The notes under the pieces: generated by a model
What the model was told of the DNA's origin: nothing
The model's database searches: none
The model's input: the letters and a program-made list of their open reading frames with translations, nothing else
Origin: an uncultured Holophagales bacterium
GTDB taxonomy: Bacteria; Acidobacteriota; Thermoanaerobaculia; Multivoradales; UBA5704
Direction of reading: 5' to 3'
Length of the DNA stretch: 64,000 bases
NCBI GenBank assembly: GCA_963842525.1
Contig: CAWJGT010000009.1
Span: 1,344,001 to 1,408,000 of the forward strand
In this document: positions 3-62,900 of the stretch, one piece after another
How the letters are laid out: every line of letters begins with the position of its first letter
How positions within the stretch are numbered: position 1 is the first letter of the stretch
Made by a program: the position numbers and the translations under genes

Positions 3-3000
3 ACGGCCGAGGCCCGCAGGCCCTTCGATTTGGCCGCGGGCCGGCCCATCCGTTCGACCCTGTTGAGGCTCGGCCCCGCACGGCACCTCCTGCTCCTGAC
101 GCAGCACCATATTGCCTTGGATGTCTGGTCCGTCGGCCTTCTCGTCGACGAGCTGGCAGAGCTCTACCGGGCGTTTGCCGCGGGCCGGCGGTCGCCGCTG
201 CCGGAGCCGGAGGTGCAATACGCGGATTTCGCGGCCTGGCAGCGCGAGCACCTCCAGGGAGAGGTCCTGGAGAAGCTCCTGGGGTACTGGCGCGAGAGGC
301 TGGGCGACCGCCCGGCCGGGTTCGAATTGCCGGCCGACCGACCGCGGCCCGCTGTCCAGACCTACCACGGAGCGGCCGAGCGGATCGAACTCCCCCCGGC
401 CGCCGTGGAGGGGCTGCGCCGGCTCGCCGCGGCGGAGGGAACGAGCCTCTTCGCTGCCGCGCTCGCCGCGTTCAACGCGGTCCTCCACCGCTGGGTCGGG
501 CAGGACGACGTGATCGTCGGCACCGCGGCGGCGAGCCGTCCCGATGTCGCCGTCGAAACGCTGCTCGGCCTCTTCATCAACACCCTCGTGCTGCGCACCG
601 ATCTCGGCGGGGATCCGACCTTCCGTGAGCTTCTCGGCCGGACGCGCGAGACCGCCCTCGGGGCTTTCAGCCATGCCGAGCTGCCGTTTCAGCAGCTCGT
701 CGAGGTCCTGCAGCCGGAGCGCGACCTGTCACGCGGCCCGCTCTTCCAGATCTTCTTCTCGCTCCAGAACGTCGGCCTGCCCACCCTGGAGCTGCCGGAC
801 CTGACGATGCACCCGGCCGAGTCCTCCTCGGGGGCCTCCCAGTTCGACCTCGCGGTCTATCTCACCGAGTCACCGGCGGGGGTCGACGGCTGGATGGAGT
901 ACAACCCCGACCTCTACGACGCGGAGACGATCCGCCGCCTGGCTCGCCATTTCGCGACGCTCGCCGAGGGAGCTGCCGAGCACACTGACCGGCGCCTCTC
1001 GGATCTCCCTCTGTTGAGTCAGGACGAAGAGGACCGGCTGCTCCGGGAGTGGAGCCATGCCCGGCCCGGCGAGGTGCTCTCCGCGCCGGCCTGCCTGCAC
1101 GAGCTGTTCGCGCGGCAGGTCGAGGAAAGAGGTGGAGAGATCGCGGCAGTTCATCGTGACCAAAGCTGGACCTATCGCGAGTTGGACGCCCAAGCCGGGG
1201 AGGTGGCCCGCCGTCTGCGCGCGCTGGGGGTGGGCCCAGGGGATCGGGTGGGCCTCTGCGCGGAGCGCTCGCTGTCTCTGCTCGCCGGACTGCTGGGCAT
1301 CCTGAAAACCGGGGCCGCCTACGTGCCGCTCGATCCGGGAGCGCCAGCCGCCCGGTTGGAGTGGATGTTGGGCGATGCTGCAGCCTCCGCCGTAGTGATC
1401 CAGGGAGGCCGGGCAGCGCGGTTGATGGCGGGCCGAGAACGAGTCATCGATCTGTCTGTCTTTCCCCCCTCTCCCGGTCGGTGGGGGGGCGATGGGAGGG
1501 GGGCCGGGGGTGAGGGGTCCCCCGCCTACGTCATCTACACCTCCGGCTCCACAGGCACCCCCAAAGGCGTAGTGGTCAGCCACGCCAACGTGGCCGGCTT
1601 CTTCGCCGCCCTGGACGAAGTTCTGCCCAGCCGCGAGCCGGGGGTCTGGCTGGCGGTGACCAGCGTCTCGTTCGACATCTCGGTCCTGGAGCTGCTGTGG
1701 ACCCTGACCCGCGGCTGGCGGGTGGTCATCCAGGACGAGATGGGCGCCGGCCTGGTGCGCGCCCAGCGGACGCCCCGCCGGCCGATCGATTTCAGCCTGT
1801 TCTATTTCGCCGATGCGGGAGGAGACCCGCGGGACAAGTACCGCCTGCTGCTCGAAGGCGCCCGCTTTGCGGACGAGCGCGGCTTCCAGGCGGTCTGGAC
1901 CCCCGAGCGGCACTTCCACGCCTTCGGCGGGCTCTATCCCAATCCCTCGGTCACCGGCGCCGCCGTGGCCGCGGTCACCCGCCGGGTGCAGATCCGGGCG
2001 GGGAGCGTCGTCCTGCCTCTCCACGACCCCCTGCGGGTGGCCGAGGAGTGGTCGGTCGTGGACAACCTGTCCGGCGGCCGGGTCGGTGTCTCGTTCGCCT
2101 CAGGCTGGCACGCCGACGACTTCGTCTTCGCGCCGGACCGCTACGCCGCCCGCAAGGAGGTCATGCTGCGCGAGATCGAGACCGTGCGCGCCCTCTGGCG
2201 TGGCGAGCCGGTCCGCCGCACCGGCGGCAGCGGCCGGGAGGTCGAGGTGAGCGTCCTGCCGCGGCCCCTCCAGCCCGAGCTGCCGATCTGGCTCACCGCC
2301 GCGGGCAATCCCGAGACCTTCCGCCTGGCCGGCGAAATTGGCGCCAGCGTCCTCACGCATCTGCTCGGCCAGACACTCGACGAGGTGGGGGAGAGGATCG
2401 CGGTCTATCGCGAGGCATGGCGTCGGGCCGGGCATCCTGGTGAAGGCGCCGTCACCCTGATGCTCCACACCTACGTCGGAGGCGATGACGCAGCCGTCCG
2501 GGAGATCGTCCGCGGTCCCTTCACCGAGTATCTGCGCAGCTCCTTCGGCCTCGTCGAGAACCTGACGCGCAGCGTCGGCCTGGGCGATCCACGCGAGCTG
2601 TCCGACGAGGATCGCGAGGCGCTCCTCGTCCATGCCTTCGACCGCTACTTCGAGACCAGCGGCCTCTTCGGCGGGCCCGAGACCTGTCTGCGGACCATCG
2701 ACCGTCTGCGGGAGATCGGGGTCGACGAGGTCGGCTGCCTGATCGACTTCGGGATCGATTTCGACACCACGATGGAGGGGCTGCGCCGGCTGGCGGAGCT
2801 GAGGGAGCAACTCGCCGCGGAGGTCCCTCACCCCCCTGGCCCCCCTCTCCCATCCGCACTCCCAATCCGCCGGGAGAGGGGGGAAGGGACACCGATCGAT
2901 GAGGAAAGAGGCCTCGGAACCTCGCTGCTCCCCTCTCCCGGGGGCCGGGGAGTGCGGATGGGAGAGGGGCCGGGGGTGAGGGGCCTTCGCGGCGGCGAAG

Positions 3001-5144
3001 AGTCCTCAGACGACCTCGACCTCTTCTCGCTCTCCGCCCAGATCGCCCGCCAGGGCGCCACCCACCTCCAGTGCACCCCCTCCCTGGCCGGCGCGCTCGC
3101 CGCCGATCCCGACACGCTCGCCGCCCTGGCGCCGCTCCGCACCCTCCTCCTCGGAGGCGAGGCCCTGCCGGCGCCCCTCGCCCGGACCCTGCGCGCCACC
3201 CTTGGCGGCGAGATCCGCAACATGTACGGCCCGACCGAAACCACGATCTGGTCGCTGAGCCATCCGGTGGAGGAAGCCGGAGACCGGGTGCCGATCGGCC
3301 GGCCGCTCGCGAACAACACCGTCTATCTGCTCGACCAGCACCTGCGTCCGGTCCCGCCCGGCATGCCCGGGGAGATCTTCCTCGGCGGCGACGGCGTGAC
3401 CTCCGGCTACTGGCGACGGCCGGACCTGACCGCCGAGCGCTTCGTGCCCGACCCTTTCACGGATCGGCCCGGCTCCCGGCTCTATCGAACGGGCGACCTC
3501 GGGCGGTTCCGGCCCGACGGCGCCGTCGAGTTCCTCGGCCGGATCGACCAGCAGGTCAAGGTCCGCGGGCACCGCATCGAGCTGGGAGAGATCGAGGCGG
3601 CGCTCCTCGCGCATCCCGGGGTCCGGGAGGCCGCCGTGGTGGCGCGGGAGCATGCGCCGGGCGACCTCCGGCTTGCCGCCTACGTGGTGCCCGCGGCCGG
3701 CCGCGCCGCGGAGCCGCTGCAACCCCGGAGCGACGTGCAGCAGGACCGGCCGCACTTCCTGATGCCCAACGGCATGCCCATGGCCTACGTCACCGAGTTC
3801 CAGATGCGAGGAGGCTACCAGGAGATCTTCGCGGACGAGATCTACCTGCGGCACGGCATCGAGCTGCCGGACGAAGCCACAGTCTTCGACGTGGGTGCCA
3901 ACATCGGCCTCTTCACCCTCTTCGTCCACCAGCGCGTGCGGCACCCGCGGGTCTTCGCCTTCGAGCCGTTCCCACCCACCTTCGAGGCTCTTCGCGACAA
4001 CGTAGAGCTCTACGGCCTCGACGTCCGCCTCTTCCACCGCGGCGTGGCCGACCGGCCGGGGCAGACGGAATTCACCTTCTACCCGAACGCGCCCGGCCTC
4101 TCCGGCCGCTTCGCTGGAACCCCGGAAGACCTGGCGGAAAACCGCGCCCTCGTCCTCGACTGGCTGGAGAAGAGCGGCGCCGGGGCCGACCTCCCGGCGG
4201 AGCAGATCGAGGAGGTCCTGCGGGACTACCTGCGGACGGAGACCTTCCCCGTCGAGCTGGTCGCGCTCTCGGATGTGATCCGCGAGCACGGGGTCGAGCA
4301 CATCGACCTCCTCAAGGTGGACGCCGAGAAGAGCGAGGTCGAGATCCTCCGCGGCCTGCTCCCGGAGGACTGGCGGAAGATCGACCAGGTGGTCCTGGAG
4401 GTCCACAGCGACGAGCTGCTGGACAAGGTTTCCCGAATCCTGAAGAGCCACGGGTTCGAGCTGGCGGTCGACGACTTCGCCGTTGCCGAGGAGCGGGACG
4501 ACCGGCAGGCGGTGCGCGTGACCATGGTCTACGCGATCTCCGCCGCGAAACGCGCGCAGAGAGCCGGAGCCGTAGTGCCCGGTCCGGTCTCGGCGAACGA
4601 GCTGCGGCGCTGGCTCGGCGAGCGCCTGCCCGAGCCCATGATCCCCCCCTGCTTCGTCTTTCTCGAGTGCCTGCCGCGCACCCCCGGCGGCAAGATCGAC
4701 CGCCGTTCTCTCCCCGCGCCAGTTGCCGAAGCGCGGCCGGAAGCCGCCTATGTGGCGCCGCGCACTCCGACCGAGGAGGCGATCGCAGCCGTCTGGCGCG
4801 AGATCCTGGGCCGCGAGCGGGTCGGTATCCATGACAACTTCTTCGAAGCCGGCGGCAGCTCCCTCCTGCTGGTCCAGGTCCACGCCCGCCTCAAGCGGGC
4901 GCTCGGCCGCGAGATCACCATGGTGCAGCTCTTCCGCCATCCCTCGGTCCAGGCCCTCGCGCGTTTCCTGGACGAAGGGCCGCGGGAGACGCTCGCGCTC
5001 GCCGGAGCCGAAGAGCGGGTCTCGCGCGCCCGCGCCGCCCAGCCGGGAGGCGCCCTCGACCGCCAGCGGCAGTTCCTCGAAGAGCGGAGAAAGCGCCGCG
5101 ATATTCGCGGTACTGGCGATCCTGGCCGCCGGAGCCCGTCATGA
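3..5144 (+). CDS. NRPS, 5'-truncated: C - A(Gly) interrupted by luciferase-like monooxygenase and FkbM methyltransferase - PCP
   Basis: Frame is open from nt 3 (TAEARRPFDL), so the listed TTG at 30 is not the start. Motifs: C HHIALDVWS; A3 YVIYTSGSTGTPKG; A4 FDIS; LLM FSLFYF..WTPERHFH (~1783-2820); A5 NMYGPTE; A8 GRIDQQVKVRGHRIELGEIE; FkbM FDVGANIG..LLKVDAEKSE (~3750-4540); PCP FFEAGGSS. Code DILQLGMIW = Gly-type. Confidence 0.95.
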   Translation, partial: TAEARRPFDLAAGRPIRSTLLRLGPARHLLLLTQHHIALDVWSVGLLVDELAELYRAFAAGRRSPLPEPEVQYADFAAWQREHLQGEVLEKLLGYWRERLGDRPAGFELPADRPRPAVQTYHGAAERIELPPAAVEGLRRLAAAEGTSLFAAALAAFNAVLHRWVGQDDVIVGTAAASRPDVAVETLLGLFINTLVLRTDLGGDPTFRELLGRTRETALGAFSHAELPFQQLVEVLQPERDLSRGPLFQIFFSLQNVGLPTLELPDLTMHPAESSSGASQFDLAVYLTESPAGVDGWMEYNPDLYDAETIRRLARHFATLAEGAAEHTDRRLSDLPLLSQDEEDRLLREWSHARPGEVLSAPACLHELFARQVEERGGEIAAVHRDQSWTYRELDAQAGEVARRLRALGVGPGDRVGLCAERSLSLLAGLLGILKTGAAYVPLDPGAPAARLEWMLGDAAASAVVIQGGRAARLMAGRERVIDLSVFPPSPGRWGGDGRGAGGEGSPAYVIYTSGSTGTPKGVVVSHANVAGFFAALDEVLPSREPGVWLAVTSVSFDISVLELLWTLTRGWRVVIQDEMGAGLVRAQRTPRRPIDFSLFYFADAGGDPRDKYRLLLEGARFADERGFQAVWTPERHFHAFGGLYPNPSVTGAAVAAVTRRVQIRAGSVVLPLHDPLRVAEEWSVVDNLSGGRVGVSFASGWHADDFVFAPDRYAARKEVMLREIETVRALWRGEPVRRTGGSGREVEVSVLPRPLQPELPIWLTAAGNPETFRLAGEIGASVLTHLLGQTLDEVGERIAVYREAWRRAGHPGEGAVTLMLHTYVGGDDAAVREIVRGPFTEYLRSSFGLVENLTRSVGLGDPRELSDEDREALLVHAFDRYFETSGLFGGPETCLRTIDRLREIGVDEVGCLIDFGIDFDTTMEGLRRLAELREQLAAEVPHPPGPPLPSALPIRRERGEGTPIDEERGLGTSLLPSPGGRGVRMGEGPGVRGLRGGEESSDDLDLFSLSAQIARQGATHLQCTPSLAGALAADPDTLAALAPLRTLLLGGEALPAPLARTLRATLGGEIRNMYGPTETTIWSLSHPVEEAGDRVPIGRPLANNTVYLLDQHLRPVPPGMPGEIFLGGDGVTSGYWRRPDLTAERFVPDPFTDRPGSRLYRTGDLGRFRPDGAVEFLGRIDQQVKVRGHRIELGEIEAALLAHPGVREAAVVAREHAPGDLRLAAYVVPAAGRAAEPLQPRSDVQQDRPHFLMPNGMPMAYVTEFQMRGGYQEIFADEIYLRHGIELPDEATVFDVGANIGLFTLFVHQRVRHPRVFAFEPFPPTFEALRDNVELYGLDVRLFHRGVADRPGQTEFTFYPNAPGLSGRFAGTPEDLAENRALVLDWLEKSGAGADLPAEQIEEVLRDYLRTETFPVELVALSDVIREHGVEHIDLLKVDAEKSEVEILRGLLPEDWRKIDQVVLEVHSDELLDKVSRILKSHGFELAVDDFAVAEERDDRQAVRVTMVYAISAAKRAQRAGAVVPGPVSANELRRWLGERLPEPMIPPCFVFLECLPRTPGGKIDRRSLPAPVAEARPEAAYVAPRTPTEEAIAAVWREILGRERVGIHDNFFEAGGSSLLLVQVHARLKRALGREITMVQLFRHPSVQALARFLDEGPRETLALAGAEERVSRARAAQPGGALDRQRQFLEERRKRRDIRGTGDPGRRSPS
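1464..1517. repeat. Half copy of CCCTCTCCC/GGGTGAGGG palindromic (REP-like) element, in frame in NRPS
   Basis: CCCCCCTCTCCCGG...GATGGGAGGGGGGCCGGGGGTGAGGGG matches the right arm of the full copies. Translated as PPSPGRWGGDGRGAGGEG directly before A3. Confidence 0.8.
2825..2982. repeat. 158-bp REPIN-like inverted-repeat element, in frame in NRPS
   Basis: Arms CCCTCACCCCCCTGGCCCCCCTCTCCCATCCGCACTCCC / GGGGAGTGCGGATGGGAGAGGGGCCGGGGGTGAGGG. Each arm has its own CCCTCTCCC..GGGAGAGGG hairpin. Lies at the LLM/A-domain junction. Confidence 0.9.
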
Positions 5145-6055
5145 CCGAGCCCGCCCGCCGCCACACTCTGCCCAACGGTCTCGAGGTCGCCTACCAGTCC
5201 AAGGCCGAGCTGCTGCAGTTCTACGAGGACATCTTCGAGAAGCAGGTCTACACCCGCGGCGGGATCACCCTGCGCGACGGCGACACGGTCTTCGACGTCG
5301 GCGCGAACATCGGCCTCTTTTCAGTCTTCGTGGCCGAGCGCTGGCCAGGCGCGCGCATCTGGGCCTTCGAGCCGGCGCCGCCCCTCTTCGAGATCCTGCG
5401 CGCCAACACGGCCCGCTATGGCGACCGGGTACGGCTCCTCAACTGCGGCCTGTCGAACCAATCGGGCGAGGCCCGGCTCACCTTCTATCCCCACACGTCC
5501 GGCATGTCCTCCTTCTACCCCGATGGGCAGCAGGAGGCCGCGGCCCTGCGCACCCTGATCCGCAACGAGGCGCAAGGCCGGAAAGAAGTGGAGGAGCTGC
5601 GCGCCTGGGAGGACGAGCTGATCGAGCAGCGCCTCCGGAGCGAGACGTTGACCTGTTCCCTGCGAACCCTCGCCGAGGTCGTCCGCGAGGAGGGAGTGAC
5701 CCGGATCGACCTCCTCAAGGTCGACGTCGAGAAGAGCGAGATGGACGTCCTCGAAGGCATGGATGCCGAGGCCTGGAGCAAGGTCGAGCAGGCCGTCGTC
5801 GAGGTCCACGACCTGGGCAGCCGACTCCTCGACATCCAGCGCCGTTTCCGCGATCTCGGCTTCGCGGTGACCCTGGAGCAGGACGACCTCTACCACGGCT
5901 CGGACCGCTACAACCTCTACGCGCTGCGCGAGCACCTCCGCAGCTCCGACCTCCACCACCTCCGCCGTCCCGACCGCGCCGCCACCCTAGGCCGCATCGA
6001 AGACCGCGCGAAGAAGCTCCGGGACGCCATGCACAAAGGGCCGCGCAAGATCTGA
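5141..6055 (+). CDS. FkbM-family SAM-dependent methyltransferase
   Basis: ATGA overlap with the NRPS stop. Motifs VFDVGANIG, AFEP, IDLLKVDVEKSE. Clearly similar to the FkbM domain embedded upstream. Confidence 0.92.
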   Translation: MTEPARRHTLPNGLEVAYQSKAELLQFYEDIFEKQVYTRGGITLRDGDTVFDVGANIGLFSVFVAERWPGARIWAFEPAPPLFEILRANTARYGDRVRLLNCGLSNQSGEARLTFYPHTSGMSSFYPDGQQEAAALRTLIRNEAQGRKEVEELRAWEDELIEQRLRSETLTCSLRTLAEVVREEGVTRIDLLKVDVEKSEMDVLEGMDAEAWSKVEQAVVEVHDLGSRLLDIQRRFRDLGFAVTLEQDDLYHGSDRYNLYALREHLRSSDLHHLRRPDRAATLGRIEDRAKKLRDAMHKGPRKI

Positions 6056-6072
6056 GTCGTCAACAGCGAGGC

Positions 6073-7689: not shown

Positions 7690-7767
7690 CTCCGCCAACT
7701 CACACGGCGGCGCATGCTAGCACGGCGTAGCGGTGGCCCCGGCGCTGCCCGGGGCCGCCTCTTCCGC

Positions 7768-8466: not shown

Positions 8467-8518
8467 GGTGTTTCTTCCTTTCGTTGGGTTGATGGCTCGT
8501 GGCCGGCAACCCCTCATC

Positions 8519-8533
8519 GCAACGGCCGTGCCG
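8519..8533 (-). promoter_or_regulatory. Sigma-54 (-24/-12) promoter for the secreted protein gene
   Basis: Minus strand reads CGGCAC-GGCCG-TTGC, matching YGGCAC-N5-TTGC. It is ~50 bp upstream of the ATG and divergent from a sigma-54 activator. Confidence 0.75.
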
Positions 8534-8647
8534 TGCCCGTCACGATCCGCTAAACCCATTCAGATCAATGCCTTGTCTTCTCCTTTCGGCAGCCGCGGAG
8601 GCCGTTTTCAGGGGCGGCTTCGCCGCGGTTTTGGTAAAGTCACCCCG

Positions 8648-10136
<1,489 letters not shown>

Positions 10137-10162
<26 letters not shown>

Positions 10163-13100
10163 GCGCGGCCCGGGCGCGGCGGGCGAGGAGGCCATAGCCG
10201 GCCGCGGCGGCCTCTCGTGCGACCGCCGCCAGCCGTGCGCGGCCGGTGGCCTCGCCCGTCTCATCGGCACCGGCCTCCAGGGTGCCGAGGATGAGCCGGG
10301 CCTCCAGGGCGAGCGGGCGCAGGCCCATGTGCTCCGCTTCGGCGAGGGTGGCGCGTAGCGCACCAGCCGCCTGGCGAACCTGTCCTGTCGCCGCTTGAAC
10401 CCGCGCCGCGGCCAGGGACGCCTGGAGCTGAAGCACCCGGTTCTCGCAGGCGGCGAGAGGCTCTGCGGCGCGCTGGACCTCGGCGGCGGCAGCGTCCTTG
10501 CGGCCCTGGGCCAGGGCGGCCAGGACGAGCACGGTCCGCGCCGGCAGCTCGTCATCCGGCGACGGTTTCGCTCCCAGGGTGGCCAGGGATGCGCGCACCA
10601 TGGCGGCCCCGGCCTCGGCCTGGCCGGCGTCCACCAGGACCCGCGCCAGCTCGACCCTCTGGCGCGCCGCCCAGAGCTTCTCGCCCACGGCGTCGAGGCC
10701 GGCGGCGGACGCCCCCAGCTCTCGTTGCGCCGCAGGCAGATCGCCGCGCAGAGCCAGCACCTGTCCCTGCAGGCCCCGGTCCTCGGCCACTCCGGACGCC
10801 TCGCCGGTCGAGCGATGCAGCGCCAGGGCACGGGATACCAGGTCCGCCGCTTCCTGGAGCTTCCCTTCCTCGATGGAGAGCGCGGCCAGATTGGAGAGCA
10901 CCGCCGCCTCGCTGCTGCGGTCGCCGAGCTCGCGCAGGGTGGCCGCTGTCTCCGCGAACAAGGCTCGCGCCTGAATGCGCCGACCCAACCGCTGGTCGAC
11001 GCGCGCCAGGTTGACGCCGATCTGGGCCGCCGTCCTCTTCGCTCCGATGCGGCGGAAGATGGCCAGCGCCTCCTCATAGCTTTCCCGAGCCCCGGCCAGG
11101 TCGCCGCGCTCCGAGAGGGTGACGCCGATGTTGGTCAGGCCGAGACCTCGGGTCTCCTCATTCCCGGTCGCACGGCCGATGGCGATGACCTCCTCGAACG
11201 TCCGGCGGGCGGCGGCAAGTTCACCCTGCTGCGCGAGGACGGAGCCGACGGCGCTGAGCGCCGTGGCCGCCGAGACGAGGTCTCCGGACGCCCGGAACAG
11301 CTCGTGGGCGCGCTCGTCGGCGACCCGCGCCTCGGGCAGGCGGCCGAGAGCGCGGAGGCCGACCCCCTGGAAGTACAGCGCCCGTGCGACCACGAGCGGC
11401 GCATCCTGGAGCTCCCCTTCGCGTTTGGCGCCTGCCGCAGCCTCGAGCGCCTGCTCGTAGTCGCCGAGGCTCAGGGAGGCTTCGGCTTCGACGAGGTCGA
11501 TCCGCGGGTCGTCGCGCCCGGGAAGCGCCGACGCGCGCAGGAGCGCGACCGTGTCGAGGGCGGCGACCGCGTCTCCCTTCTGGATCTGCACCCGCCCCAG
11601 GCGGAGGCCGTATTCGAAGTCGTCGGGAAAGCGGGTCCACAGCTCGCGATAGACGGCGGCTGCCGGCTCCCACTGCCGCAACGTCTCGTAGAAGCGGGCC
11701 TCCACCCGCCGCCGGGATTCATAACCGAGCGCGGACGAGCGGCGGAAAGCCTCCCGCGCGGACTCCTCGGCGCGTGCCTGCCAGCCCAGCGTCTTCCAGG
11801 CGGCGGCCAGCTCGGCCCGGATGAGCGCATTGTCCGGATCGGCGTCGCGCGCCTGTTCGAGCAGGCTCGTCGCCTGCAGGGTCTCGAAGCGCGAGAGCTT
11901 CTCCAGGCCCTCGGCATAGAGGCGGGCAGCACGCACGCTGGCCGGCCGGGCCGCCTGCATCGCCTCCTTTTCCGCAGTGGACAGATCCTCCATTCCCAGG
12001 CCGTGGCGCAACCGCATGCCGAGCGTATCGATCAGATCGAGGAGGGCCTCCTCGGTCCCGTCCTCGCGCACCGAGCCGACGATCTCGCCGCTGCGGGCGT
12101 CCTGGATCGTCACGGTACAGCGGACCCGTCCGCGCTGGCGGGCGAGGTACGCGCCGGTGATCACGAAGTCGGCGGCGAGGCGGGTACGCAGGCGCGCCAG
12201 GGCCTCCGGAGAGAGGTCCGAGCCGGTCGACAAGGCGAGGTCCTGCCGCGCCCGGGTCACCTGCTCGCCGGGGATCAGCCGCAACCGCTCCCCGGCGGCG
12301 AGCTCGGAAGGCAGGAGTCGCACCAGCGAGCGCTCCACATAGTCCAGCTCCGGATCCCGGGATAGGTTCTCGAAGCCGAACACCGCCACGGCGGGGCGTG
12401 GTGCGGCTGGCGACGGAGCGACGGAAGGCTGCCGGAGGGTCTCCCACGTCCGCCAGCCGATGGCGGCGAGGACGATCAGCACCACGGCTGTGCCCGCGGC
12501 CCACGCCCATCGGGAACGGCGCCGCCGGCGCAACGTGCGCGGTGAGGGCCCCGAGCCACGGGCACCGCCGGAGGTGGACAAGGCCCGCGCCACCTCGACC
12601 GGCGTGGCAAAGCGCTCGGCCGGATCGCTCTCCAGGCAGCGCAGGATCACCTCCTCCCAGAGCGGATCGAGGCCGGGCTCGTAGACGCGCGGCAGCGTCG
12701 GCGGCTCGCACAGGCGCTTGATCGCCGTTCCGACCGCTGTGTCGGCGCTGAACGGCAGACTGCCGGTGACCATCTCGTAAAGGACGATGCCGAAGGCGTA
12801 GACGTCGGTGGCCGGCGTCACCGGCTCGCCCCGGACCTGCTCAGGGGCCATGTAGGCCGGCGAGCCGAGGATGGTACCCGTGCGGGTGACCGAGGCCGAC
12901 ACCGAGCTGCTCCAGGCGAGGCCGAAATCGGTGACCACGGCGCGCAGGCCCTCGGACCCTTGCACCAGCATGACGTTGCCGCTCTTGAAATCGCGATGGA
13001 CGACGCCGGCCTGATGGGCAGCCTGCAGGCCCTCGGCAATGTGGGCGACCAGCGGCAGCGCCTCGGGCGGGGTCAGCCGTCCCGTGCGCTGGAGGCACTC

Positions 13101-13448
13101 CTCCAGCGTCTCGCCGCACAGCAGCTCCATGGTGATGAACGCGAGATCGGCCCCGCCCTCTCCATGGTGATGGAACAGGTCGAAGGTCCGGCAGACGCTG
13201 GGATGGGTGACCCGGCGGGCGAGCTGGATCTCGCGCTTGAAGCGGTGCAGCACCTCCGGATCGCGGGCGATCTCGGGGCGCAGCACCTTGACGGCCACCT
13301 GCTCCTCGAGCTCGAGGTCCGTGGCCTCGTAGACCTCTCCGATCGCCCCCTCGCCGAGACGGGCGACGATCCGGAAACGGCCGGCAAGAACCTGGCCCGC
13401 TGCCAGCAGCGGTGCGCCGAAACGGCTCTTGGAGGGCGGCTCTTCCAC
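10137..13448 (-). CDS. Ser/Thr protein kinase with transmembrane segment and TPR repeats
   Basis: LGEGAIGEVY, VAVK, HRDFKSGN, TDFG, YMAPE; TM helix (WAWAAGTAVVLIVLAAIGW); VAVFGFENLS domain; helical TPR-like repeats. GTG 13448 with GAGG RBS is taken as the start. 3' end overlaps the activator by 26 bp. Confidence 0.9.
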
Positions 13449-13569
13449 TCTGGTTGACCTCTCAGCCGGGATCAAGGGTACCGTCCTCACTATATCGTGC
13501 CAGGCAGCCCGAAGCGGGAACAACCGTCGGCATGTCCTCCTCCCTACCTCGGTGGGTATGGGGGAGATT

Positions 13570-13947
13570 GCAGTGGGAGTTGCCGCTGCCGCGGTGGGCT
13601 TTGCCGCCGCCGCGGTTGGAGCTGCCGCTCCCACGGGAGCGGTTCGACTCCCCGCGGGGAATGTAGCTGGTCCCGCAGTGGGAGTTGCCGCTGCCGCGGT
13701 GGGCTTTGCCGCTGCCGCGGTTGGAGTTGCCGCTCCCGCGGGAGCGGTTCGACTCCCCGCGGGGAATGCAGCTGGTCCCGCAGTGGGAGTTGCCGCTGCC
13801 GCGGTGGGCTTTGCCGCTGCCGCGGTTGGAGTTGCCGCTCCCGCGGGAGCGGTTCGACTCTCCGCGGGGAATGTAGCTGGTCCCGCAGTGGGGGTTGCCG
13901 CTGCCGCGGTGGGCTTTGCCGCTGCCGCGGTTGGAGTTGCCGCTGCC
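13570..13947. repeat. Higher-order tandem repeat: 3.6 x 105-bp unit, each of five related 21-bp subunits
   Basis: GCAGTGGG starts recur at 13570, 13675, 13780 and 13885. Subunits: GCAGTGGGAGTTGCCGCTGCC / GCGGTGGGCTTTGCCGCTGCC / GCGGTTGGAGTTGCCGCTCCC / GCGGGAGCGGTTCGACTCCCC / GCGGGGAATGTAGCTGGTCCC. Confidence 0.95.
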
Positions 13948-13999
13948 ACGGACGGCTACCCCCGGCAGCCGGCGCTCTCTGCTGCTAAAATAACGGCTC

Positions 14000-15001: not shown

Positions 15002-15045
15002 GTGTTAAAGTTTCTTTCTGGAACGACTCCGATGGGAGCCAAGCC

Positions 15046-18305: not shown

Positions 18306-18331
18306 CGACGGCCAAGACCGGAGGAGCGGCC

Positions 18332-29687: not shown

Positions 29688-56976
<27,289 letters not shown>

Positions 56977-56987
<11 letters not shown>

Positions 56988-59900
56988 AGTTGCAGAGGAT
57001 GAGGCCCTGGAGGAGAGGGCGGAGGTCGAGAGCCAGCGGCTGTTGCATGCGCTTTTCGAGGAGCGCTGCGACGAAGACCCCCAGGCGGTCGCGCTGGTCG
57101 ACGGCCGGGACCGTCTGACCCGCGCCGAGCTGGAGGGCCGCGCCAACCAGCTCGCCCGGCATCTGCAATCCCTCGGCGTCGGCCCCGAGGTGAGGGTCGC
57201 GATCTGTGCCGAGCGCACAGCCGAGATGATCGTCGCCCTGTTCGCCGTGCTCAAGGCGGGCGGCGCTTACGTGCCGGTCGATCCGACCTATCCGCGCGAG
57301 CGGCAGGCGATCATCCTGGAGGACAGCCAGGCGCCGCTCCTCCTCACGCAGGAGCGCCTGCTCGACCGGCTGCCGGCGACGTCGGCCGCGATCGTCTGCC
57401 TCGACCGTGACTGGCCCAGCGTGGAGCGGTGGAGCGCGGCGCGGTTGGGCCAGCCGGCGCCGCTGGGGCTCGCGCGGCTGCCGCTGGACCTCGCGCGGCA
57501 GCCGCCCGACCTCGTGGACCCTCACCCCCGGCCCCTCTCCCATCCGCACTCCCGACCCCCGGGAGAGGGGAGCCCCCCACCCGAGAGCTTCGTGCCTGTG
57601 CATCTTCCCCCCTCTCCCGGTGGGATGGGAGTGCGGATGGGAGAGGGGGGCCAGGGGGGTGAGGGTCCTGCTCCCGGCAACCTCGCCTATCTGATCTACA
57701 CCTCCGGCTCGACCGGCCGGCCCAAGGGCGTCGCCATCGAGCACCGCTCGGCCGTGGCCCTGATCCGCTGGGCGAGCGAGGTCTTCCCTCCCGACGAGCT
57801 TGCCTGCGTCCTGGCCTCGACGTCCATCTGCTTCGACCTGTCGATCTTCGAAATCTTCCTTCCGCTGGCCCTGGGCGGCCGGATCGTCCTGGCCGAGAAC
57901 GCCCTCGCTCTGCCCAGGCTGCCGGCCGCGGAGGAGGTGACGCTCGTCAACACCGTCCCCTCGGCGATTTCCGAGCTGGCGCGGATGGGCGGCATCCCGC
58001 CGTCCGTGCGGGTGATCAACCTGGCGGGAGAGCCGCTGCGCAAAGCCCTGGTCGAACGGCTCTACCAGGTGCCGACGGTGGAGAAGGTCTACAACCTCTA
58101 CGGTCCCTCGGAGGACACGACCTACTCGACCTGGGCGTTGATGCGGCGCCAGGACCCCTTTGCTCCGTCCATCGGCCGGCCGCTCGACGGCACCCGGGTC
58201 CACCTGCTCGACGCCGAAATGCAGCCGGTGCCGGCGGAGGAGGCGGGCCAGCTCTATCTGGCCGGAGCCGGCCTCGCCCGCGGCTATCTCGGCCGGCCGG
58301 ACCTGACCGCGGAGAAGTTCGTCCCCGACCCCTTCGCCGGGCAGCCGGGCGAGCGCCTCTATGCCACCGGCGACCTGTCGCGCTACCGGCCGGACGGGGA
58401 GATCGATTTCCTCGGCCGCATCGACCACCAGGTCAAGATCCGCGGCTTCCGCATCGAGCTGGGCGAGATCGAGGCGGCCCTGGAGCGCCATCCCGCAATC
58501 GCCGACACCGTGGTGGTGGCCCGCGAGTCCGAGGCGGCCGAGATCTCCGAAAGGGTCCTGGTCGCCTATGTCGTGGCCGTCGGGGGCGCTCCGCTGGCGC
58601 CCGTCGAGCTGCGCGCCTGGCTCCAGCGCAGCCTGGCCGAGTACATGATCCCTTCCCACTTCGTCCTGCTCTCCGCGCTGCCGCTGACGCCCAACGGCAA
58701 GGTGGACCGCAAGGCGCTGCCGGCGCCCGAGCGCGCGGTGGCGGATGGGTACATGGCGCCGCGCACGCCTCTGGAGACGAAGCTGGCCGGGATCTGGGCC
58801 GAGGTGCTGGAGCTGCCGCGGGTCGGCGCCGGGGACGACTTCTTCGCCCTGGGCGGTCATTCCATTGTGGCCACACGCATCCTGGCGCGGGTGCGCGAGA
58901 GCCTCGGCGTCGAGCTGCCGGCTCGCACCCTGTTCGATGCGCCGACCGTGGCCCTGCTGGCCGCGCGGGTGGCGGCGGCGAGCCGGAAAACCGCGCCGGA
59001 CGCGGTGGGCCTGCCGCCCGTCGAGCCGGTCTCCCGCGAGCTGCCGCTCGACGCCTCCACCTCCCAGGAAGGGATGTGGCTCGCCGATCGCCTGAGCCCG
59101 GCCTTCCCGCTGTTCAACATCCCCCTGCAGCTCACCTTGCGCGGACCGCTCGACGCCGCGGCGCTGCAGCGCGCCCTGTCCGAGATCGTGCGCCGCCACG
59201 AGGCGTTGCGGGCCGTGTTCGGGGAGCGTGACGGACACCTGCGGCCGGCGCTCTCCGCCGCGGCCACGGTGGAGCTGCCCGCGATCGATCTGCGGCTGCT
59301 GCCCGATCCCGCGGCGTCCGCAGAGGCCCTGGCCGCCACGGCCGCACGCCAGCGCATCGACCTCGCCTGCGGGCCGCTGCTGCGGGCTCTCCTCCTGCGC
59401 GTCACCGATCGCGAGCACCGGCTCGTCGTCGTCGTCCACCATATGGCCGGGGACGACTGGTCGACCTGGGTCCTGGTGCGCGAGCTGGCGGCCCTGTATG
59501 CCGCGTTCGCCGCCGGCCGCCCGTCGCCGCTCCCCGAGCTGCCGGTCCAGTACACCGACTTCGCGTCCTGGCAGCGGGCCTGGCTCGAAAGCCCAGCGGC
59601 CGAGGCCCAGCTCCGCTTCTGGGTGGAACGCCTGGCGGGGGTTCCGGAGCTGCTGGAGCTGCCGGCCGACCGGCCGCGCCCCGCGGTCCGCAGCTTCGAG
59701 GGCGGGCGCCTCACCGCCATGGTCCCGGCGACGGCCGTGCGCGCGCTTGCCGGCCTCGCCCGGCGCCGCGGGGCCACGCCCTTCATGGCCCTGCTCGCGG
59801 TGTTCGAGACGCTGGTCCACCGCGTCACCGGCCGGGAGGACGTCGTCGTCGGCTCGCCGATCGCCGGACGGCGCGTGCCGCAGGTCCAGGACCTGATCGG

Positions 59901-62900
59901 CCTGTTCACCAACAACCTGGCCTGGCGCGGCGACCTCGCGGGCGATCCGACCTTCCTCGAGCACCTGGCGCGCGTCCGCGAGACGGTGCTGGAGGGCGCC
60001 GACCGGCAGGAGATCCCGTTCGACCGCCTGCTGCGCGAGATCCAGCCGGAGCGGACCCAGCGCTACAGCCCGGTGGCCCAGGTCGCCATCGCCCTTCAGA
60101 ACACGCCGCCGCCGCCGCGCGAGCTCGGCCCGGGGCTCGGCCTCGAAGTGCGCGAGCTGGGCAACGGCACGGCCAAGCTCGACCTCATCGTCTATCTGCA
60201 CGAGACCGAGCAGGGCGGCCTGGCAGGGGACTGGGAGTATGCGAGCCCGCTCTTCGATGCCACGACGATCGCCCGTCTGGCCAGGCATTTCCGCGCCTTG
60301 ATCGCGGCGGCCCCGGCTCACGCCGAGGCACGGCTCGCGGACCTGCCGATCCTCGACGCGCCGGAGCGCCACCAGACGCTGGTGGAATGGAACGACACGG
60401 CCGTGCCGTTCCCGCGCGACGCCTGCGTCCACGAGCTGTTCGCGGCGCGCGCCGCGGAGGCGCCCGGCGCCGTGGCCCTGGTGGCCCCGGGCCGCAGCCT
60501 CACCCGCGGCGAGCTGTACGACCGTGCGCAGGAGCTGGCGCGGCACCTCCGGCACCTGGGAGTCGGGCCGGAGGCGCGGGTGGCGGTCGCGGCCGAGCGC
60601 TCTCCCGAGATGGTCGTGGCGCTGCTGGCCGTCCTCCAGGCCGGCGGGGCGTATGTGCCGCTCGATCCCGGCTATCCGGTTGAGCGGCTCGCCTGGATGC
60701 TGGAGGACTCCGGGGCTGCGGTGCTGCTCACGCAGGGGCATCTGGTTTCGCGGCTGCCGGCGTTCGGGGGGATGGTCATCGACCTCGACGTCTCCCTTCT
60801 CCCCGAATCCAACCCCGCAGGGGTGGCCGGAATTAGCCCGGGATTTCAATCCCGGGAATCGGACGCATCCCCAGACCTCCTGAGCCCCGCCAGGGGCGAC
60901 AGGAATCCGACCGGCGAGCCCCTGCCGCCCCTGCCGGGGCTGATGGAGAGAGATGGCCTCCCGTTCCCGGGCCTGAAGGCCCGGGCTAATTCCGGCCGCC
61001 CCTGCGGGGCTGATGTCCAGACGCTGGTGGACCCCGTAAACGCCGCCTACGTCATCTATACCTCCGGCTCCACCGGCCGGCCCAAGGGCGTCGTCGTCTC
61101 TCACCGCTCCCTGGTCAACCTGGCCGAGGCCCAGGTCCGGCTCTTCGAGCTGGGGCCGGGGAGCCGCCAGCTCCAGTTCGCCTCCTTCAGCTTCGACGCC
61201 TCGGTCTCGGAGATCTTCACAGCCCTGCTGTCGGGAGCCGAGCTGCATCTCGCCTCGCGTGACGAGCTGCTCCCCGGGCCGGCCCTGGCGCGCACCGTGC
61301 GCGAGCGCGGCATCACGGTGCTGACCCTGGCGCCCTCGGCCCTGGCCGCGCTGGAGGCCGCGGACGGCGGGCGGCTGCCTTCGGTCCGCACCCTGGTCGT
61401 GGCCGGCGAGGCGTGCCCGGCCGGCCTGGCCGCCCGCTGGTCGCGCGGACGGCGCTTCCTCGACGCCTACGGGCCGACCGAGGCCACCGTCTGCGCCACC
61501 GCCGCGGTGCTCGGCGACGGAGAGACCCTCTCGATCGGGCGCCCGATCGGCAATGCCCGGATCGCCGTGCTCGGGCCGGGAGGCACGCCCGCGCCCATTG
61601 GCGTCGTGGGCGAGATCGGGATCGGCGGCACGGGCGTGGCGCGCGGCTACCTCGGCCGGCCGGAGCTGACCGCCGAGCGCTTCGTGCCTGACCCGGTGAC
61701 CGGCGAGCCCGGCGCGCGCATGTATCGGAGCGGCGACCTCGGACGGCTCCTGCCGGACGGCCGGATCGAGCTGTACGGCCGGCGGGACGACCAGGTCAAG
61801 GTCCGCGGCTTCCGCATCGAGCTCGGCGAGGTCGAGGCCGCGCTTGCCCGCCAGCCTGAGGTGCGCGAGGCCGTCGTCGTCGTGCGGGACGAGCCCGGTG
61901 CCGCCGGCGCCCCGGCCGACCGGCGGCTGGTCGCCTGCCTGGTCCCGGCCGTCGAAACCGATCCGGCCGATCTGATCTCCGAGCTGCGGAGCCGGCTGGC
62001 GGCGGAGCTGCCGGACTACATGGTCCCCAACGGCTGGAGTGTGCTGCCCGCGCTCCCCCTCACCCCGAACGGCAAGGTGGACCGGCGCGCGCTTGCTCTG
62101 CTGGAGACCGTCGCCGCCGCGGCGGACGCCTACGTGCCGCCGGCCGGCCCCGTCGAGGAGCTGCTGGCCGGGATCTGGGCCGAGGTGCTGGGCGTCGAAC
62201 GTGTGGGGGCACACGATCGCTTCTTCGACCTCGGCGGGCATTCGCTCCTCGCCACCCAGGTGCTGTCGCGGGTCCGGAAGGCGTTCGACATCGAGCTGCC
62301 GATGCACCTCTTCTTTGCCGAGCCCACGGTGGCCAGCCTGGCACGGCAGGTGGAGCAGGCGCGCCGCGAAGGCCCTGGCGGCCGCGCCTCGGCTCCGCCC
62401 ATCGAGCGGGCACCGCACGACGCGGCCCTGCCGCTCTCCTTCTCCCAGAGCCGGCTCTGGCTGCTCGACCGGCTGGAGCCCGGCTCGCCGCTCTACAACG
62501 TCGCGCAGGTCCTGGCGCTCCGCGGCAGCCTGCGGATCCCCGCGCTGCGCTTCGCCCTGGGCGAGGTCGTGCGGCGCCACGAGGTGCTGCGCTCCCGCAT
62601 CGAGTCGGTGGAGGGCAGGCCGCTCCAGGTCGTCCTGCCGGCGTCGCCCCTCGACCTGCCCGTGATCGACCTGGCGGCGCTCCCCGCGGCTGTGCGGGCG
62701 GCGGTGGCGGACCGGCTTGCCGGGGAGGAAGCGCGCCGTCCGTTCGACCTCGTGCATCCGCCGCTGCTGCGCGCCGCGGTCTACCGCCTGGGGGAGGAGG
62801 AGCACCACCTCGTCCTGGTGGCCCATCACATCGCCTCGGACGGATGGTCCCAGGGGATCCTCGCCCGCGAGGTCTCGGCCTTTTATACGGCTTGCGTCGA

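Follow-up and report, generated by a model that had tools for sequence, protein, structure and literature searches.

Elements in the window and their host genes

The window, the whole 64,000-nucleotide stretch analysed here, contains two element-bearing loci on the + strand: a gene open at its 5' end (3–5144) that encodes C, an interrupted A, an FkbM methyltransferase and a PCP, and an NRPS assembly line of ~11 modules (29676–63999). The original prediction held that four A domains carry inverted-repeat DNA shortly before YxIYTSGSTG, and this is what we see at all four sites; the other eight of the 12 A3 motifs in the window are unoccupied. In the first gene, a family-A single arm (1461–1530, +) encodes ~22 Pro/Gly-rich residues in frame and stops 2–3 codons short of the A3 motif (1536) of the first A domain. 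The assembly line hosts the other three, all in frame on the + strand: a family-A doublet at 41945–42113 (55 residues; A3 at 42127), a second family-A doublet at 57513–57675 (~52 residues), which ends 8 codons upstream of A3 (57697), and a REPIN-like family-B doublet at 60806–61016 (~68 residues), which ends ~12 codons upstream of A3 (61057). As predicted, two families share the four sites, A holding three and B the last, and each copy lies without stops in an uninterrupted long frame (3–5144, 39082–48789 or 56977–63999), stopping shortly upstream of the Y-x-I-Y-T-S-G-S-T-G codons. A further claim, that the elements occur in both orientations, has little meaning for palindromes.

A fifth copy had been missed. 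This family-A doublet (2817–2990, +), also in frame, sits at the C-terminal junction of a luciferase-like monooxygenase domain that interrupts the A domain of the first gene between motifs A4 and A5, so that this gene has two family-A copies. A third repeat family occupies the same pre-A3 loop 170 bases beyond the window end.

The arms of the 41945–42113 doublet are complementary over 42 nt at 100% (41967–42008 against 42053–42094) and those of the 60806–61016 doublet over 57 nt at 84% (60810–60866 against 60956–61012). The predicted RNA fold of the first reaches −142.6 kcal/mol (z −12.8), that of the second −153.5 kcal/mol (z −11.7), with 0 of 200 shuffles as stable in either case. A chance origin of these inverted repeats is excluded, because both families A and B are multicopy genome-wide.

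The assembly line runs through several reading frames with ~8 single-base frame switches, one of them falling in a G7 run and three others at TTCGAA sites, and homology continues in the new frame. These switches look like base-calling errors in the sequencing, and the element copies sit within unbroken stretches. We found neither read-level nor expression data for the window genes, nor any orthologues of them above 67% identity.

In an AlphaFold2 model of an insert-bearing A domain (mean pLDDT 83.3), whose fold matches solved A domains, the insert (residues 130–184; pLDDT 44–52, without secondary structure) is placed between strands 125–129 and 185–191. The model thus portrays it as a disordered surface loop between two strands, in keeping with the surface loop originally proposed. 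The native loop measures 17–24 residues in eight homologues (58–67% identity) against 55 in the 41945–42113 copy, and the A2–A3 distance minus the element is 32–57 residues in 8 of 13 occupied loops, against a minimum of 58 in unoccupied ones. By these lengths, the inserts mostly replace the native loop rather than simply extending it, which corrects the earlier view that residues are just added.

Repeat families across the genome

The genome carries at least three families of small palindromic repeats, unrelated to one another and each in multiple copies, in line with the expectation that the elements would be multicopy elsewhere. Family A has ~580 BLAST loci and ~800 arms (411 L and 386 R); families B and C have 26 and 47 loci, respectively. 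Family-A arms form 266 L-to-R doublets against one R-to-L; the G-rich R arm reads CCCCTCTCCC, loop, then GGGAGGGGGG and GGGGTGAGGG, and a single arm has a 10-bp stem only. Families B and C are inverted doublets, and two Y1 transposase genes are flanked on both sides by half or whole copies of them (family-B half copies in the case of the gene on contig C32). Between one another, the Y1 genes share 35–59% identity, which makes each of them in effect single-copy. Both flanked transposases pass the NCBI IS200/IS605 model (65.9 and 68.4 bits; cut-off 55), whereas against the NCBI REP-associated tyrosine transposase (RAYT) model one scores 19.6 bits (cut-off 80) and the other has no match; no Y1 (IS200-type) gene lies within 3 kb of any family-A copy. 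The suggested search for RAYT genes found Y1 genes beside families B and C, but below the RAYT cut-off, and none near family A.

Most copies lie outside coding frames: 102 of the 580 family-A loci are in frame, compared with 1332–1459 (44–49%) of 3000 random places put through the same classifier. Family-A doublets have on average 2.5 of six frames open (3.05 for in-frame doublets, 2.2–2.4 for the others), which makes chance an improbable reason for ~100 copies staying open and in frame. One reading frame of the terminal GGGGTGAGGG contains a TGA; the peptides actually seen, with ...GGEG or ...GVR at their ends, use the two that remain. This choice of frame and the more numerous open frames of in-frame doublets are signs of filtering. 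Folding per nt is equally strong in in-frame doublets (−0.82 kcal/mol) and non-coding ones (−0.80). NRPS/PKS genes host ~60% of in-frame copies: 53 of 104 lie in NRPS modules, and a scan of 40 other hosts added 7 copies in 6 PKS/NRPS hosts. Non-NRPS hosts of in-frame copies include DnaE, UvrD, Lhr, RecQ/topoisomerase, an MrfA-like helicase, a PD-(D/E)XK nuclease and UDG.

A hotspot before the A3 motif

Genome-wide, the pre-A3 loop is occupied in 34 of 288 A3-motif (adenylation-type) domains (~12%); the raw count was 28 A, 3 B and 4 C copies at 289 A3 motifs, with one A locus duplicated on two overlapping contig ends. The stretches before A3 amount to ~0.6% of the genome and contain 28 of 580 A loci (27 deduplicated), 3 of 26 B loci and 4 of 47 C loci. 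The 35 occupied loops form 32 clusters at 85% identity, with element-to-A3 offsets of 0 to ~29 codons. When the 53 in-frame NRPS copies are placed on a reference module, 26 fall before A3, 6 in A8–A9 and 4 in A3–A5. These segments, A2–A3, A8–A9 and A3–A5, are the three at which A domains are interrupted by auxiliary domains. In 18 element-free chains, the length SD is 8.4 for A2–A3, 16.8 for A8–A9 and at most 4.2 for other segments. Because A8–A9 is no less variable in length than A2–A3 yet has 6 copies against 26, tolerance alone is insufficient to account for the counts.

Family A is also denser in these loops than in DNA outside genes: 27 copies in ~20 kb, against ~380–480 loci in 1.0–3.5 Mb of non-coding DNA, a several-fold higher density on a rough estimate, since the non-coding size depends on a crude gene caller. 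The single arms found before A3 comprise 11 R and 1 L, while those in frame elsewhere divide into 21 L and 20 R. The presence of three unrelated families in one loop argues against targeting by a single enzyme. In-frame REPs are already known; in the literature, we found no paper on a palindromic-repeat hotspot at the NRPS pre-A3 loop.

Turnover and selection in relatives

Among 92 genomes of the taxonomic family, 19 contain the element–A3 junction and none a reversed control pattern. The junction is also present in named public MAG records from the assemblies of other groups; in the form 'GGGGTGAGGG + C/CC + CTCGCCTAC' it recurs in many genomes on many separate contigs. As anticipated, relatives have empty sites, with homologues and orthologues whose loops are unoccupied or differently occupied. 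Across six orthologous domains from another genus, at least three different multicopy families sit in the same loop; one of the six has also lost the native helix-strand, and the most distant has a degenerate remnant resembling a triplex motif. Paralogous modules with flanks 92–94% identical carry a doublet in one case and a single arm in the other at the same site, another paralogous pair has conserved arms and unrelated central loops, and three paralogous domains carry one common single arm.

In a second orthologous domain, one single arm is common to three species at the same site. The flanks in this three-species set, as distinct from the window genes, have a dN/dS of 0.16–0.20 at a dS of 0.27–0.49, values that indicate purifying selection. 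Within the arm, three 10–11-base blocks are unchanged and the intervening loop has ~8 changes and a 3-base indel, a pattern which suggests that the DNA itself is constrained or homogenised.

Discussion

The earlier reading, that mobile palindromes are retained inside megasynthetases, is supported, and all the checks that could be run were favourable. We favour, with a probability of about 0.68, the explanation that insertions are filtered by selection at the permissive A2–A3 loop, the site at which TioN and MarQ carry a whole methyltransferase, and local turnover probably adds to this filtering. From the copies described above, we infer the following filter, order of events and mechanism of turnover. 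Small palindromic families, three at least and unrelated to one another, spread through the genome, family A as doublets of a BoxC/triplex-motif-like arm and families B and C as REPIN-like elements, each with its own single-copy IS200-type Y1 gene. Copies landing in genes would normally be lost, and survival would require that the frame is kept, that no stop codon is introduced and that the insertion point lies in a stretch dispensable to the protein. The most forgiving such stretch of an A domain would be the variable surface loop between A2 and A3, just ahead of the A3 L-A-Y strand, where the element would be translated as a disordered Pro/Gly-rich linker of 20–70 residues. The native loop, and sometimes the preceding helix-strand, could then become dispensable and be deleted, leaving the element as its replacement. 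An occupied loop would remain occupied, its copies inherited across speciation with the enzyme still under purifying selection, and copies would be swapped for other copies or families by re-insertion beside or into an existing palindrome, or by conversion. The pile-up in this loop would show where the giant peptide-making enzymes of this soil bacterium tolerate extra sequence, and the in-frame copies how selfish DNA can survive inside genes.

A possible, if less probable, alternative is active targeting or attraction, in which the elements prefer a feature of the loop and selection merely trims the outcome. A palindrome or triplex-forming tract already in place could be this feature, with nesting as the result, and so could the DNA just upstream of the highly conserved A3 codons. 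Nesting does occur, as other multicopy elements lie inside the central loops of family-A doublets, and the left flanks of these doublets are rich in G and the right flanks in C, which gives the impression of larger palindromes around them. Attraction would also suit the roughly estimated excess of loop over non-coding density, the 4-fold excess over the equally variable A8–A9, the R-arm bias, the replacement of families and the remnant in one orthologous loop of six species, and the differences between paralogous modules. However, around 251 family-A doublets we found no conserved target sequence or target-site duplication beyond 3 element-owned bases, and the distance to A3 varies. Moreover, one loop is shared by three unrelated families, of which two have transposases of their own, and this is more readily attributed to the protein than to the target of one enzyme.

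It is doubtful that a putative nucleic-acid function keeps the elements in giant genes with the encoded peptide incidental, whether as mRNA hairpins (ribosome pausing, protection of a long transcript) or as DNA hairpins or triplexes (polymerase pausing). The hairpins are very stable and equally well kept in in-frame and non-coding copies, three blocks persist in three orthologues as the rest of the arm drifts, and NRPS/PKS genes dominate among hosts. Yet most A3-motif domains, in the window as in the genome, do without an element, single arms with their short stem are retained too, families of different structure replace one another, and the same families occur in unrelated genes and mostly between genes. 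In addition, purine-motif triplexes cannot form in RNA, according to the published passages on these motifs, and those on earlier BoxC/PIT work report no in vivo effect and no promoter or terminator activity.

We also think it unlikely that recombination, gene conversion or module duplication carrying the A3 region along, instead of independent insertions, accounts for most of the spread of the elements. The single arm common to three paralogous domains and the junction recurring across genomes could be read this way, and NRPS A-core regions are described in the literature as recombination hotspots, but the 35 occupied loops barely collapse on clustering, they combine three families, both usable frames, doublets and single arms with widely varying offsets, and copies of paralogous modules have unrelated central loops. 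Assembly errors, or dead genes yet to gain stop codons, are very improbable: the assembly line has its frame switches and we found no sequencing run containing the window DNA, but those switches are single-base with continuing homology, the junction is shared by 18 further genomes in the taxonomic family and by the records of other groups, the control pattern is never seen, and element-bearing orthologues in three species have the low dN/dS given above.

Selective filtering at a permissive loop has partial precedents. RPEs (Ogata et al. 2000, 2002) are likewise palindromic repeats, of ~150 bp, translated in frame as extra peptide inside apparently functional genes, and the passages available describe the encoded segments as thought to be compatible with the protein fold (PMC10969869, PMC3733652). 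Their hosts are housekeeping genes of many unrelated kinds in the reduced genome of an intracellular bacterium, whereas the copies here concentrate in NRPS/PKS genes and one defined loop; each RPE has a conserved peptide frame (PMC10969869), whereas the present copies belong to at least three families and, with 2.5 of six frames open, are not coding-adapted. GTAG/CGTC REPs and dimers in coding regions encode 20–82 residues, many in replication and repair genes, and in one case, recB of two Xanthomonas species, the REPs at nearly the same position differ (Di Nocera et al. 2013, BMC Genomics 14:522). In-frame copies here are similarly found in replication/repair-type genes (DnaE, UvrD, RecQ/topoisomerase and others), but family A has no evident GTAG/CGTC tag at its ends, and the main-text passages of that study, whose host-ORF list is Additional file 3, mention neither NRPS hosts nor a domain-level hotspot.

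Family A resembles BoxC/triplex-motif repeats more than classical REPs, as far as sequence comparison with the published description goes. Its arms have the three blocks of BoxC/PIT/'TMECO', arranged identically (CCCTCTCCC, loop, GGGAGAGGG, short linker, GGGTGAGGG) and likewise pair as inverted doublets (Holder et al. 2015, NAR 43:10126). That work, in the passages concerned, reports 23 copies in E. coli MG1655, 'always located intergenically', with loops of 3–5 bases, whereas family A has a first loop of ~20 bases, ~800 arms and ~100 loci in frame; the search of that work, limited to loops of 1–6, would therefore miss it. The same work links triplex-motif repeats to local genomic instability, which by analogy fits the turnover seen in the loops. 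Families B and C are like REPIN-RAYT systems (Bertels and Rainey 2011 and later) in being inverted doublets in tens of copies with a flanked Y1 gene, but their transposases score as IS200-type, family A has no nearby Y1 gene, and REPINs are described as extragenic.

Interrupted A domains provide a parallel within the protein. Published descriptions place the insertions of TioN and MarQ between a2 and a3, those of most other cases at a8–a9 and some at A4–A5, with adenylation kept despite large inserts (PMC11355689, PMC8097286), so that the TioN precedent invoked originally is indeed in print. The insertion points in the fold are the same as those of the elements here. Interrupted A domains, as described, contain folded catalytic inserts with structured linkers, whereas the inserts reported here are repeat-derived, predicted to be disordered and non-catalytic.

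Palindromic elements before A3 motifs in the window

The window is ~70% G+C and contains mainly NRPS/PKS genes, and 4 of its 12 A3 motifs (Y-x-I-Y-T-S-G-S-T-G, a core motif of the NRPS adenylation (A) domain) carry a palindromic element a few codons upstream. The original prediction, made from the sequence alone, placed inverted-repeat DNA from two unrelated element families shortly before A3 in four A domains, and both points were borne out: a single arm of family A (1461-1530), two full family-A doublets (41945-42113 and 57513-57675) and one family-B doublet (60806-61016) each lie in a long open frame. It overlooked a fifth copy, a family-A doublet at 2817-2990, at the junction of a luciferase-like monooxygenase domain inserted into the first A domain; in this first NRPS (3-5144) the interrupted A domain is followed by an FkbM-type methyltransferase and then a PCP. 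Just beyond the window, 168-335 bases past its end (C9:1408168-1408335, on the same contig), a member of a third unrelated family, C, sits in frame before A3 of the A domain that follows in this assembly line.

These elements are strongly self-complementary. A repeat finder gives 42 nt of perfect complementarity between the arms at 41945-42113 and 57-nt arms with 84% complementarity at 60806-61016, and their predicted RNA folds reach -142.6 kcal/mol (z -12.8) and -153.5 kcal/mol (z -11.7), respectively. Elsewhere in the window, a 21-base tandem repeat array with at least 10 register copies (13549-13972) lies inside a long minus-strand frame, 10137..13949.

Three multicopy families

All three families are multicopy in the source genome (G000, 9.95 Mb). 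BLAST with the window copies returned 580 merged family-A loci; family B has 26 loci (median ~200 nt) and family C has 47, of which 33 are at least 100 nt long, with a hairpin of -110.5 kcal/mol. Families B and C are palindromic doublets. For family A, a motif search found 411 left and 386 right arms, and adjacent arms less than 300 nt apart were ordered left-then-right in 266 pairs and right-then-left in 1. The consensus of 169 doublets begins with CCCTCACCCC, GG, CCCCTCTCCC, ~20 variable bases and GGGAGAGGGG, passes through a poorly conserved centre that separates the arms by 20-150 bases, and closes with a mirror arm ending in GGGGTGAGGG. Its three blocks run in the order CCCCTCTCCC, ~20 nt, GGGAGAGGGG, 4-5 nt, GGGGTGAGGG, with a column identity of 90-100%. 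A MITE would have terminal inverted repeats, target-site duplications and a related autonomous IS. In family A the terminal inverted repeats are sharp (GGN-CCCTCACCCC ... GGGGTGAGGG-NCC), and no conserved sequence extends more than 3 bases into the flanks. We found no target-site duplication of 3-9 nt around family-A doublets above the level of shuffled pairings (n=251), and a 2-nt flank match at 28 of the 251, against 11.6 expected.

Judged by their sequence, the blocks of the family-A arm are those of the BoxC/PIT/triplex-motif repeat, the triplex itself being putative. Compared by eye with Table 1 of PMC4666352, the arm has in common with the BoxC/PIT/'TMECO' intrastrand triplex motif of E. 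coli a C-rich block, its G-rich complement and a second G-rich block. Its second loop (4-5 nt) fits the motif search described there, whereas its first is ~19-20 nt against 1-6 nt. Shorter-loop versions of the arm stand before A3 in relatives and in other phyla, with peptides such as ...PSPARGRGAGGEG and ...PSPLVGEGPGVR.

The original prediction proposed a search for RAYT (TnpA-REP) genes, and Y1 transposase genes lie beside copies of two of the families. Half copies of family B (C32:133447-133539, 134068-134162 and 134808-134901) surround a Y1_Tnp gene at 133626-133973, and copies of family C (C14:203970-204104 and 204745-204885) surround a Y1 transposase gene at 204236-204577. The two flanked proteins score 65.9 and 68.4 bits against the NCBIfam IS200/IS605 transposase model (cut-off 55); against the REP_Tyr_transpos (RAYT) model (cut-off 80), one scores 19.6 bits and the other gives no hit. 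We therefore use 'REPIN-like' for families B and C, without assigning them to the RAYT systems. Five Y1 proteins that we compared share 35-59% identity, as would be expected for one gene per repeat family. None of the 19 Y1_Tnp matches in the genome lies within 3 kb of any family-A copy.

As candidates for an autonomous master element of family A, we considered left and right arms 3.7-5.5 kb apart and rejected them, because the two cases examined enclose multicopy DNA (a DUF900 hydrolase, an HTH protein and unknowns) without a transposase. Arms ~5.4 kb apart occur at C23:194371-199921, C25:196639-202135 and C19:152122-157688; the first two interiors are multicopy (on at least 7 contigs), with internal repeats and a DUF900 hydrolase or HTH gene and no transposase, and the C19 pair has no sequence in common with them. 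Some family-A doublets have other multicopy elements, in part palindromic, nested in their central loops (C8:18511-19035, C9:1766640-1767166, C3:1965740-1966027, C34:128157-128452, C6:159705-159981, C6:173938-174215 and C9:56126-56396), one of them a 410-base insert with ~55 genomic copies.

An insertion hotspot before A3

Taking an A domain as occupied when an element lies in its A2-A3 segment or in the 70 residues ahead of A3, we found family A at 28, family B at 3 and family C at 4 of the 289 A3-motif matches in the genome. One family-A locus was counted twice where two contig ends overlap, leaving 34 of 288 occupied, and the occupied loops fall into 32 clusters at 85% identity. When the 104 in-frame copies were mapped onto an element-free reference module from the window, 53 could be placed and the other 51 matched no module. 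Half of the placed copies (26) lie before A3, in a loop that makes up ~2-3% of module length; the remainder fall in the A8-A9 loop (6), the PCP-C linker or C N-terminus (6), C3-C4 (4), A3-A5 (4), the A5-A6 loop (4), the A10-PCP linker (2) and the C-A linker (1). The excess of single arms before A3 (11:1) is of the G-rich right arm on the coding strand, and in-frame single arms elsewhere are balanced (20:21). At C34:306133-306576, a pre-A3 loop of 148 residues has grown from a tandem PLPHDP-type repeat with no palindromic element, further evidence that this loop tolerates changes in length.

Outside the module mapping, a Pfam scan of 40 of 42 host frames identified 6 PKS/NRPS parts and 7 replication/repair genes, the rest being diverse. 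The replication/repair hosts are DnaE, UvrD, an Lhr helicase, a topoisomerase/RecQ-type protein, an MrfA-like helicase, a PD-(D/E)XK nuclease and UDG, with in-frame family-A copies at C9:96829, C9:711330 and 711972, C6:196482 and 196641, C25:158451 and 158617, C4:116330 and 116512, C12:49667 and C3:1988017. This bias matches the one that Di Nocera et al. 2013 (PMC3733652) described for intragenic REPs. A further doublet (C9:302512-302681) lies in one open frame between HisF-like and HisIE parts, and is either a gene fusion through the element or an intergenic copy that is open by chance.

We applied a conservative in-frame test, which required that a frame run through the element without a stop, stay open for at least 90 nt on either side and have coding-type GC3 in both flanks. 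By this test, copies in frame within genes numbered 102 of 580 for family A and 2 of 26 for family B, compared with 1332-1459 of 3000 random places. The elements are thus depleted in genes ~2.5-4 fold, yet ~100 copies are read through. Family-A doublets have on average 2.5 open frames of 6, against 3.2 for random DNA of the same length and 3.05 for the in-frame doublets, and the terminal block carries TGA in one frame, the encoded peptides ending ...GGEG or ...GVR, that is, in the other two. By these sequence features, the copies are not built for coding; the pattern is the one that a selection filter on random insertions would leave. Total length is a multiple of three in 114 of 251 doublets, a figure unusable as a test of selection since the motif-based ends are not exact insertion boundaries.

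The insert takes the place of the native loop

Natural A domains are interrupted by auxiliary domains at A2-A3, A8-A9 and A4-A5, with TioN and MarQ at a2-a3 (PMC11355689, PMC8097286), and the element positions coincide with these interruption points. Among 18 element-free domains, the standard deviation of segment length is 8.4 residues for A2-A3, 16.8 for A8-A9 and at most 4.2 for all others, values that rest on the few domains (18 complete A2-to-PCP chains) recovered by strict motif chains.

An AlphaFold2 model of the A domain at 41560-43200, built with 22 homologues, has a mean pLDDT of 83.3 and a pTM of 0.80. The insert (residues 130-184) is predicted to be disordered, with a pLDDT of 44-52 and no secondary structure, and joins strand 125-129 to the strand that opens the A3 motif; the remainder aligns structurally with solved A domains that activate serine (best Foldseek match, E 1.5e-68). 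In the model, then, the A-domain fold is kept and the insert is looped out.

The original prediction held that the inserts add Pro/Gly-rich residues. Extra residues are indeed present in frame, but the native loop is mostly replaced. Eight homologues (58-67% identity) have 17-24 variable residues where the window domain has its 55-residue insert, beside which 0-2 native loop residues are left. In addition, across the genome, subtracting the element leaves an A2-A3 distance of 32-57 residues in 8 of the 13 occupied loops that could be measured, below the minimum of 58 in unoccupied ones (n=134). These sequence comparisons indicate that the insert replaces the native loop rather than being added to it. 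The nearest matches to the window's own modules were 63% identical among 30 relatives and 65-67% in metagenome contigs, so the comparison here is with homologues, and true orthologues were found for a relative's domain instead. The original prediction proposed an alignment of orthologous modules: these searches yielded no close orthologue of the window modules, their homologues have short loops, and the relative's orthologues are differently occupied.

Spread and turnover among relatives

Family A is present in 18 of 31 genomes searched, G000 included (5/5 other genomes of the genus; 15/18 other genomes of the family). The junction 'GGGGTGAGGG, 10-40 bases, A3 codons' was found at 55 places, distributed over 19 of the 92 genomes of the taxonomic family, including 4/5 in the source genus and 10/11 in another genus (g6), and the reversed control pattern occurs in none of the 92. 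Because this strict pattern recovers only 6 of the 27-28 family-A-occupied loops of G000, the true numbers in other genomes are likely higher. Across GTDB, with one genome per species, the junction was found at 68 places, 52 of them in records titled Thermoanaerobaculia, Holophagales or Acidobacteriota MAGs. In Chloroflexota (L099 and L117), Gemmatimonadota (L062, L065 and L110) and Nitrospirales (L078), a few of the matches have related arms of triplex-motif-like type, mostly shorter and read in frame ahead of A3; several of these are in ...FTSGTTG-type domains, which by this motif variant may be acyl-CoA ligase-like. Matches in Streptomyces, Microbispora, Archangium, Acetobacteraceae and Acidimicrobiia have no element arms and were taken as chance. 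In the cross-phylum check, a complete right arm was found at 59 of 98 examined loci, the two locus sets overlapping.

Both persistence and turnover can be followed in the relatives. In three g6 species, one single arm is found at the same site in all, and its flanks (~1000 codons) have a dN/dS of 0.16-0.20 at a dS of 0.27-0.49; the three blocks of the arm are unchanged, and the inner loop differs at ~8 positions and by a 3-base indel. In six orthologues of another domain, with flanks 74-91% identical, a single loop has differing occupants. Two species have a family-A doublet there; the others have a separate family-A doublet with a long loop, a different palindrome of 93 bases, a triplex-motif-like palindrome of 88 bases or a degenerate remnant. 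One of the two species sharing the doublet has also lost ~68 bases for the native helix and strand, which captures one step of loop replacement. The 93-base and 88-base palindromes are multicopy in their own genomes, with 139 and 170 first-look candidates. In G000, a doublet and a single arm occupy the same site in paralogous modules whose flanks are 92-94% identical, and in another paralogue pair the arms are conserved and the centres unrelated.

Assembly quality and decay

The frame of the window's assembly line switches ~8 times, with homology running on in the new frame. Single-base switches inside NRPS domains lie at 33305, 33958-33963, 39045-39050 and 49031-49036, with ~4 more between 29.6 and 57 kb; one coincides with a G7 run and three with TTCGAA, which the window contains 21 times where 5.8 would be expected. 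This suggests base-calling errors more than decay, probably systematic and perhaps at a methylated site. The elements are also present in independent assemblies of other genomes. In five sequencing runs, at most 6% of the window's sampled words were present in any, and no RNA run with this DNA was listed.

Why this loop

We consider a selection filter at a permissive loop to be the main cause of the hotspot, with a probability of roughly two in three. Unrelated families use the loop, their sites are the known permissive sites and those of natural length variation, the model loops the insert out, and the tested host genes are under purifying selection. Such a filter is not the whole story, because the copies in A2-A3 outnumber those in the equally variable A8-A9 fourfold; the density of family A in the loops exceeds that in non-coding DNA, a rough comparison given a whole-genome coding mask of 64.5% coding, too low to be right, likely owing to frame errors and strict GC3 limits; right arms outnumber left ones 11 to 1 among the single arms before A3, against 20 to 21 elsewhere; one orthologous loop has been occupied several times; and the blocks are conserved beyond the need of a disordered linker. 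We read these five observations as local turnover, whether by re-insertion into or beside an existing palindrome or by conversion from other copies. They leave real room for targeting of the loop by the elements, which we nevertheless regard as unlikely to be the main cause. They leave only a small chance that the elements serve a function as nucleic acid. Neither alternative is exclusive of the selection filter.

More speculatively, and doubtful at present, the pre-A3 loop could be more than a tolerant place, namely a self-renewing docking site that, after a first triplex-motif or REPIN-type palindrome has settled in it, attracts further copies and families. The unstable sequence shared by dozens of A domains could then provide recombination break points that speed A-domain swapping in NRPS-rich Acidobacteriota, or a pause site that aids folding of the N-terminal part of the A domain. 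If so, selfish repeats would be a built-in part of megasynthetase evolution or production.

Implications and comparison with known systems

In-frame palindromic repeats are already known as Rickettsia palindromic elements (RPEs) and intragenic REPs. The literature that our searches retrieved, in the text available, consists of general papers on in-frame REP/MITE and triplex-motif repeats; we found none with palindromic elements in NRPS A domains, and the supplementary host list of PMC3733652 could hold NRPS cases. As far as these searches show, what is new is how numerous such repeats are in a free-living bacterium, how they concentrate in megasynthetases, a hotspot at domain level common to several families, genera and, more weakly, phyla, the replacement of the native loop, the turnover among orthologues and the BoxC/triplex-motif nature of the main family. 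In-frame palindromes, known from Rickettsia and isolated REP examples, thereby extend to a free-living soil lineage rich in NRPS genes. We envision these copies as a natural large-scale insertion scan of NRPS modules, in which ~100 in-frame inserts of 20-70 residues mark accepted sites (before A3, A8-A9, A4-A5, A5-A6, C3-C4 and linkers) that could be used for engineering tags, auxiliary domains or split sites. The inserts also lengthen A2-A3 spacings, can lead domain callers and specificity predictors astray and, through their hairpins, can break short-read assemblies of biosynthetic clusters.

Set against known systems, the elements combine several partial likenesses. BoxC/triplex-motif copies of E. 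coli K-12 MG1655 are reported to be always intergenic and associated with local genome instability (Holder et al. 2015, PMC4666352), and this class of repeat is now tied to protein-coding sequence. Families B and C resemble REPIN-RAYT systems in being inverted palindromic doublets in many copies that flank a single-copy Y1 gene, and differ in that the profile scores place their transposases outside the RAYT clade; family A differs further, with no adjoining Y1 transposase gene. Like RPEs, ~100 of the copies lie in frame and free of stops within genes, and orthologous host genes are under selection (dN/dS 0.16-0.20); translation of the inserts is predicted from the reading frames. Finally, as in interrupted adenylation domains, extra sequence lies at a2-a3 (or a8-a9, a4-a5) with the A fold intact in the model; unlike in those domains, the insert, given its repeat origin and modelled pLDDT of 44-52, would be no folded auxiliary catalytic domain.
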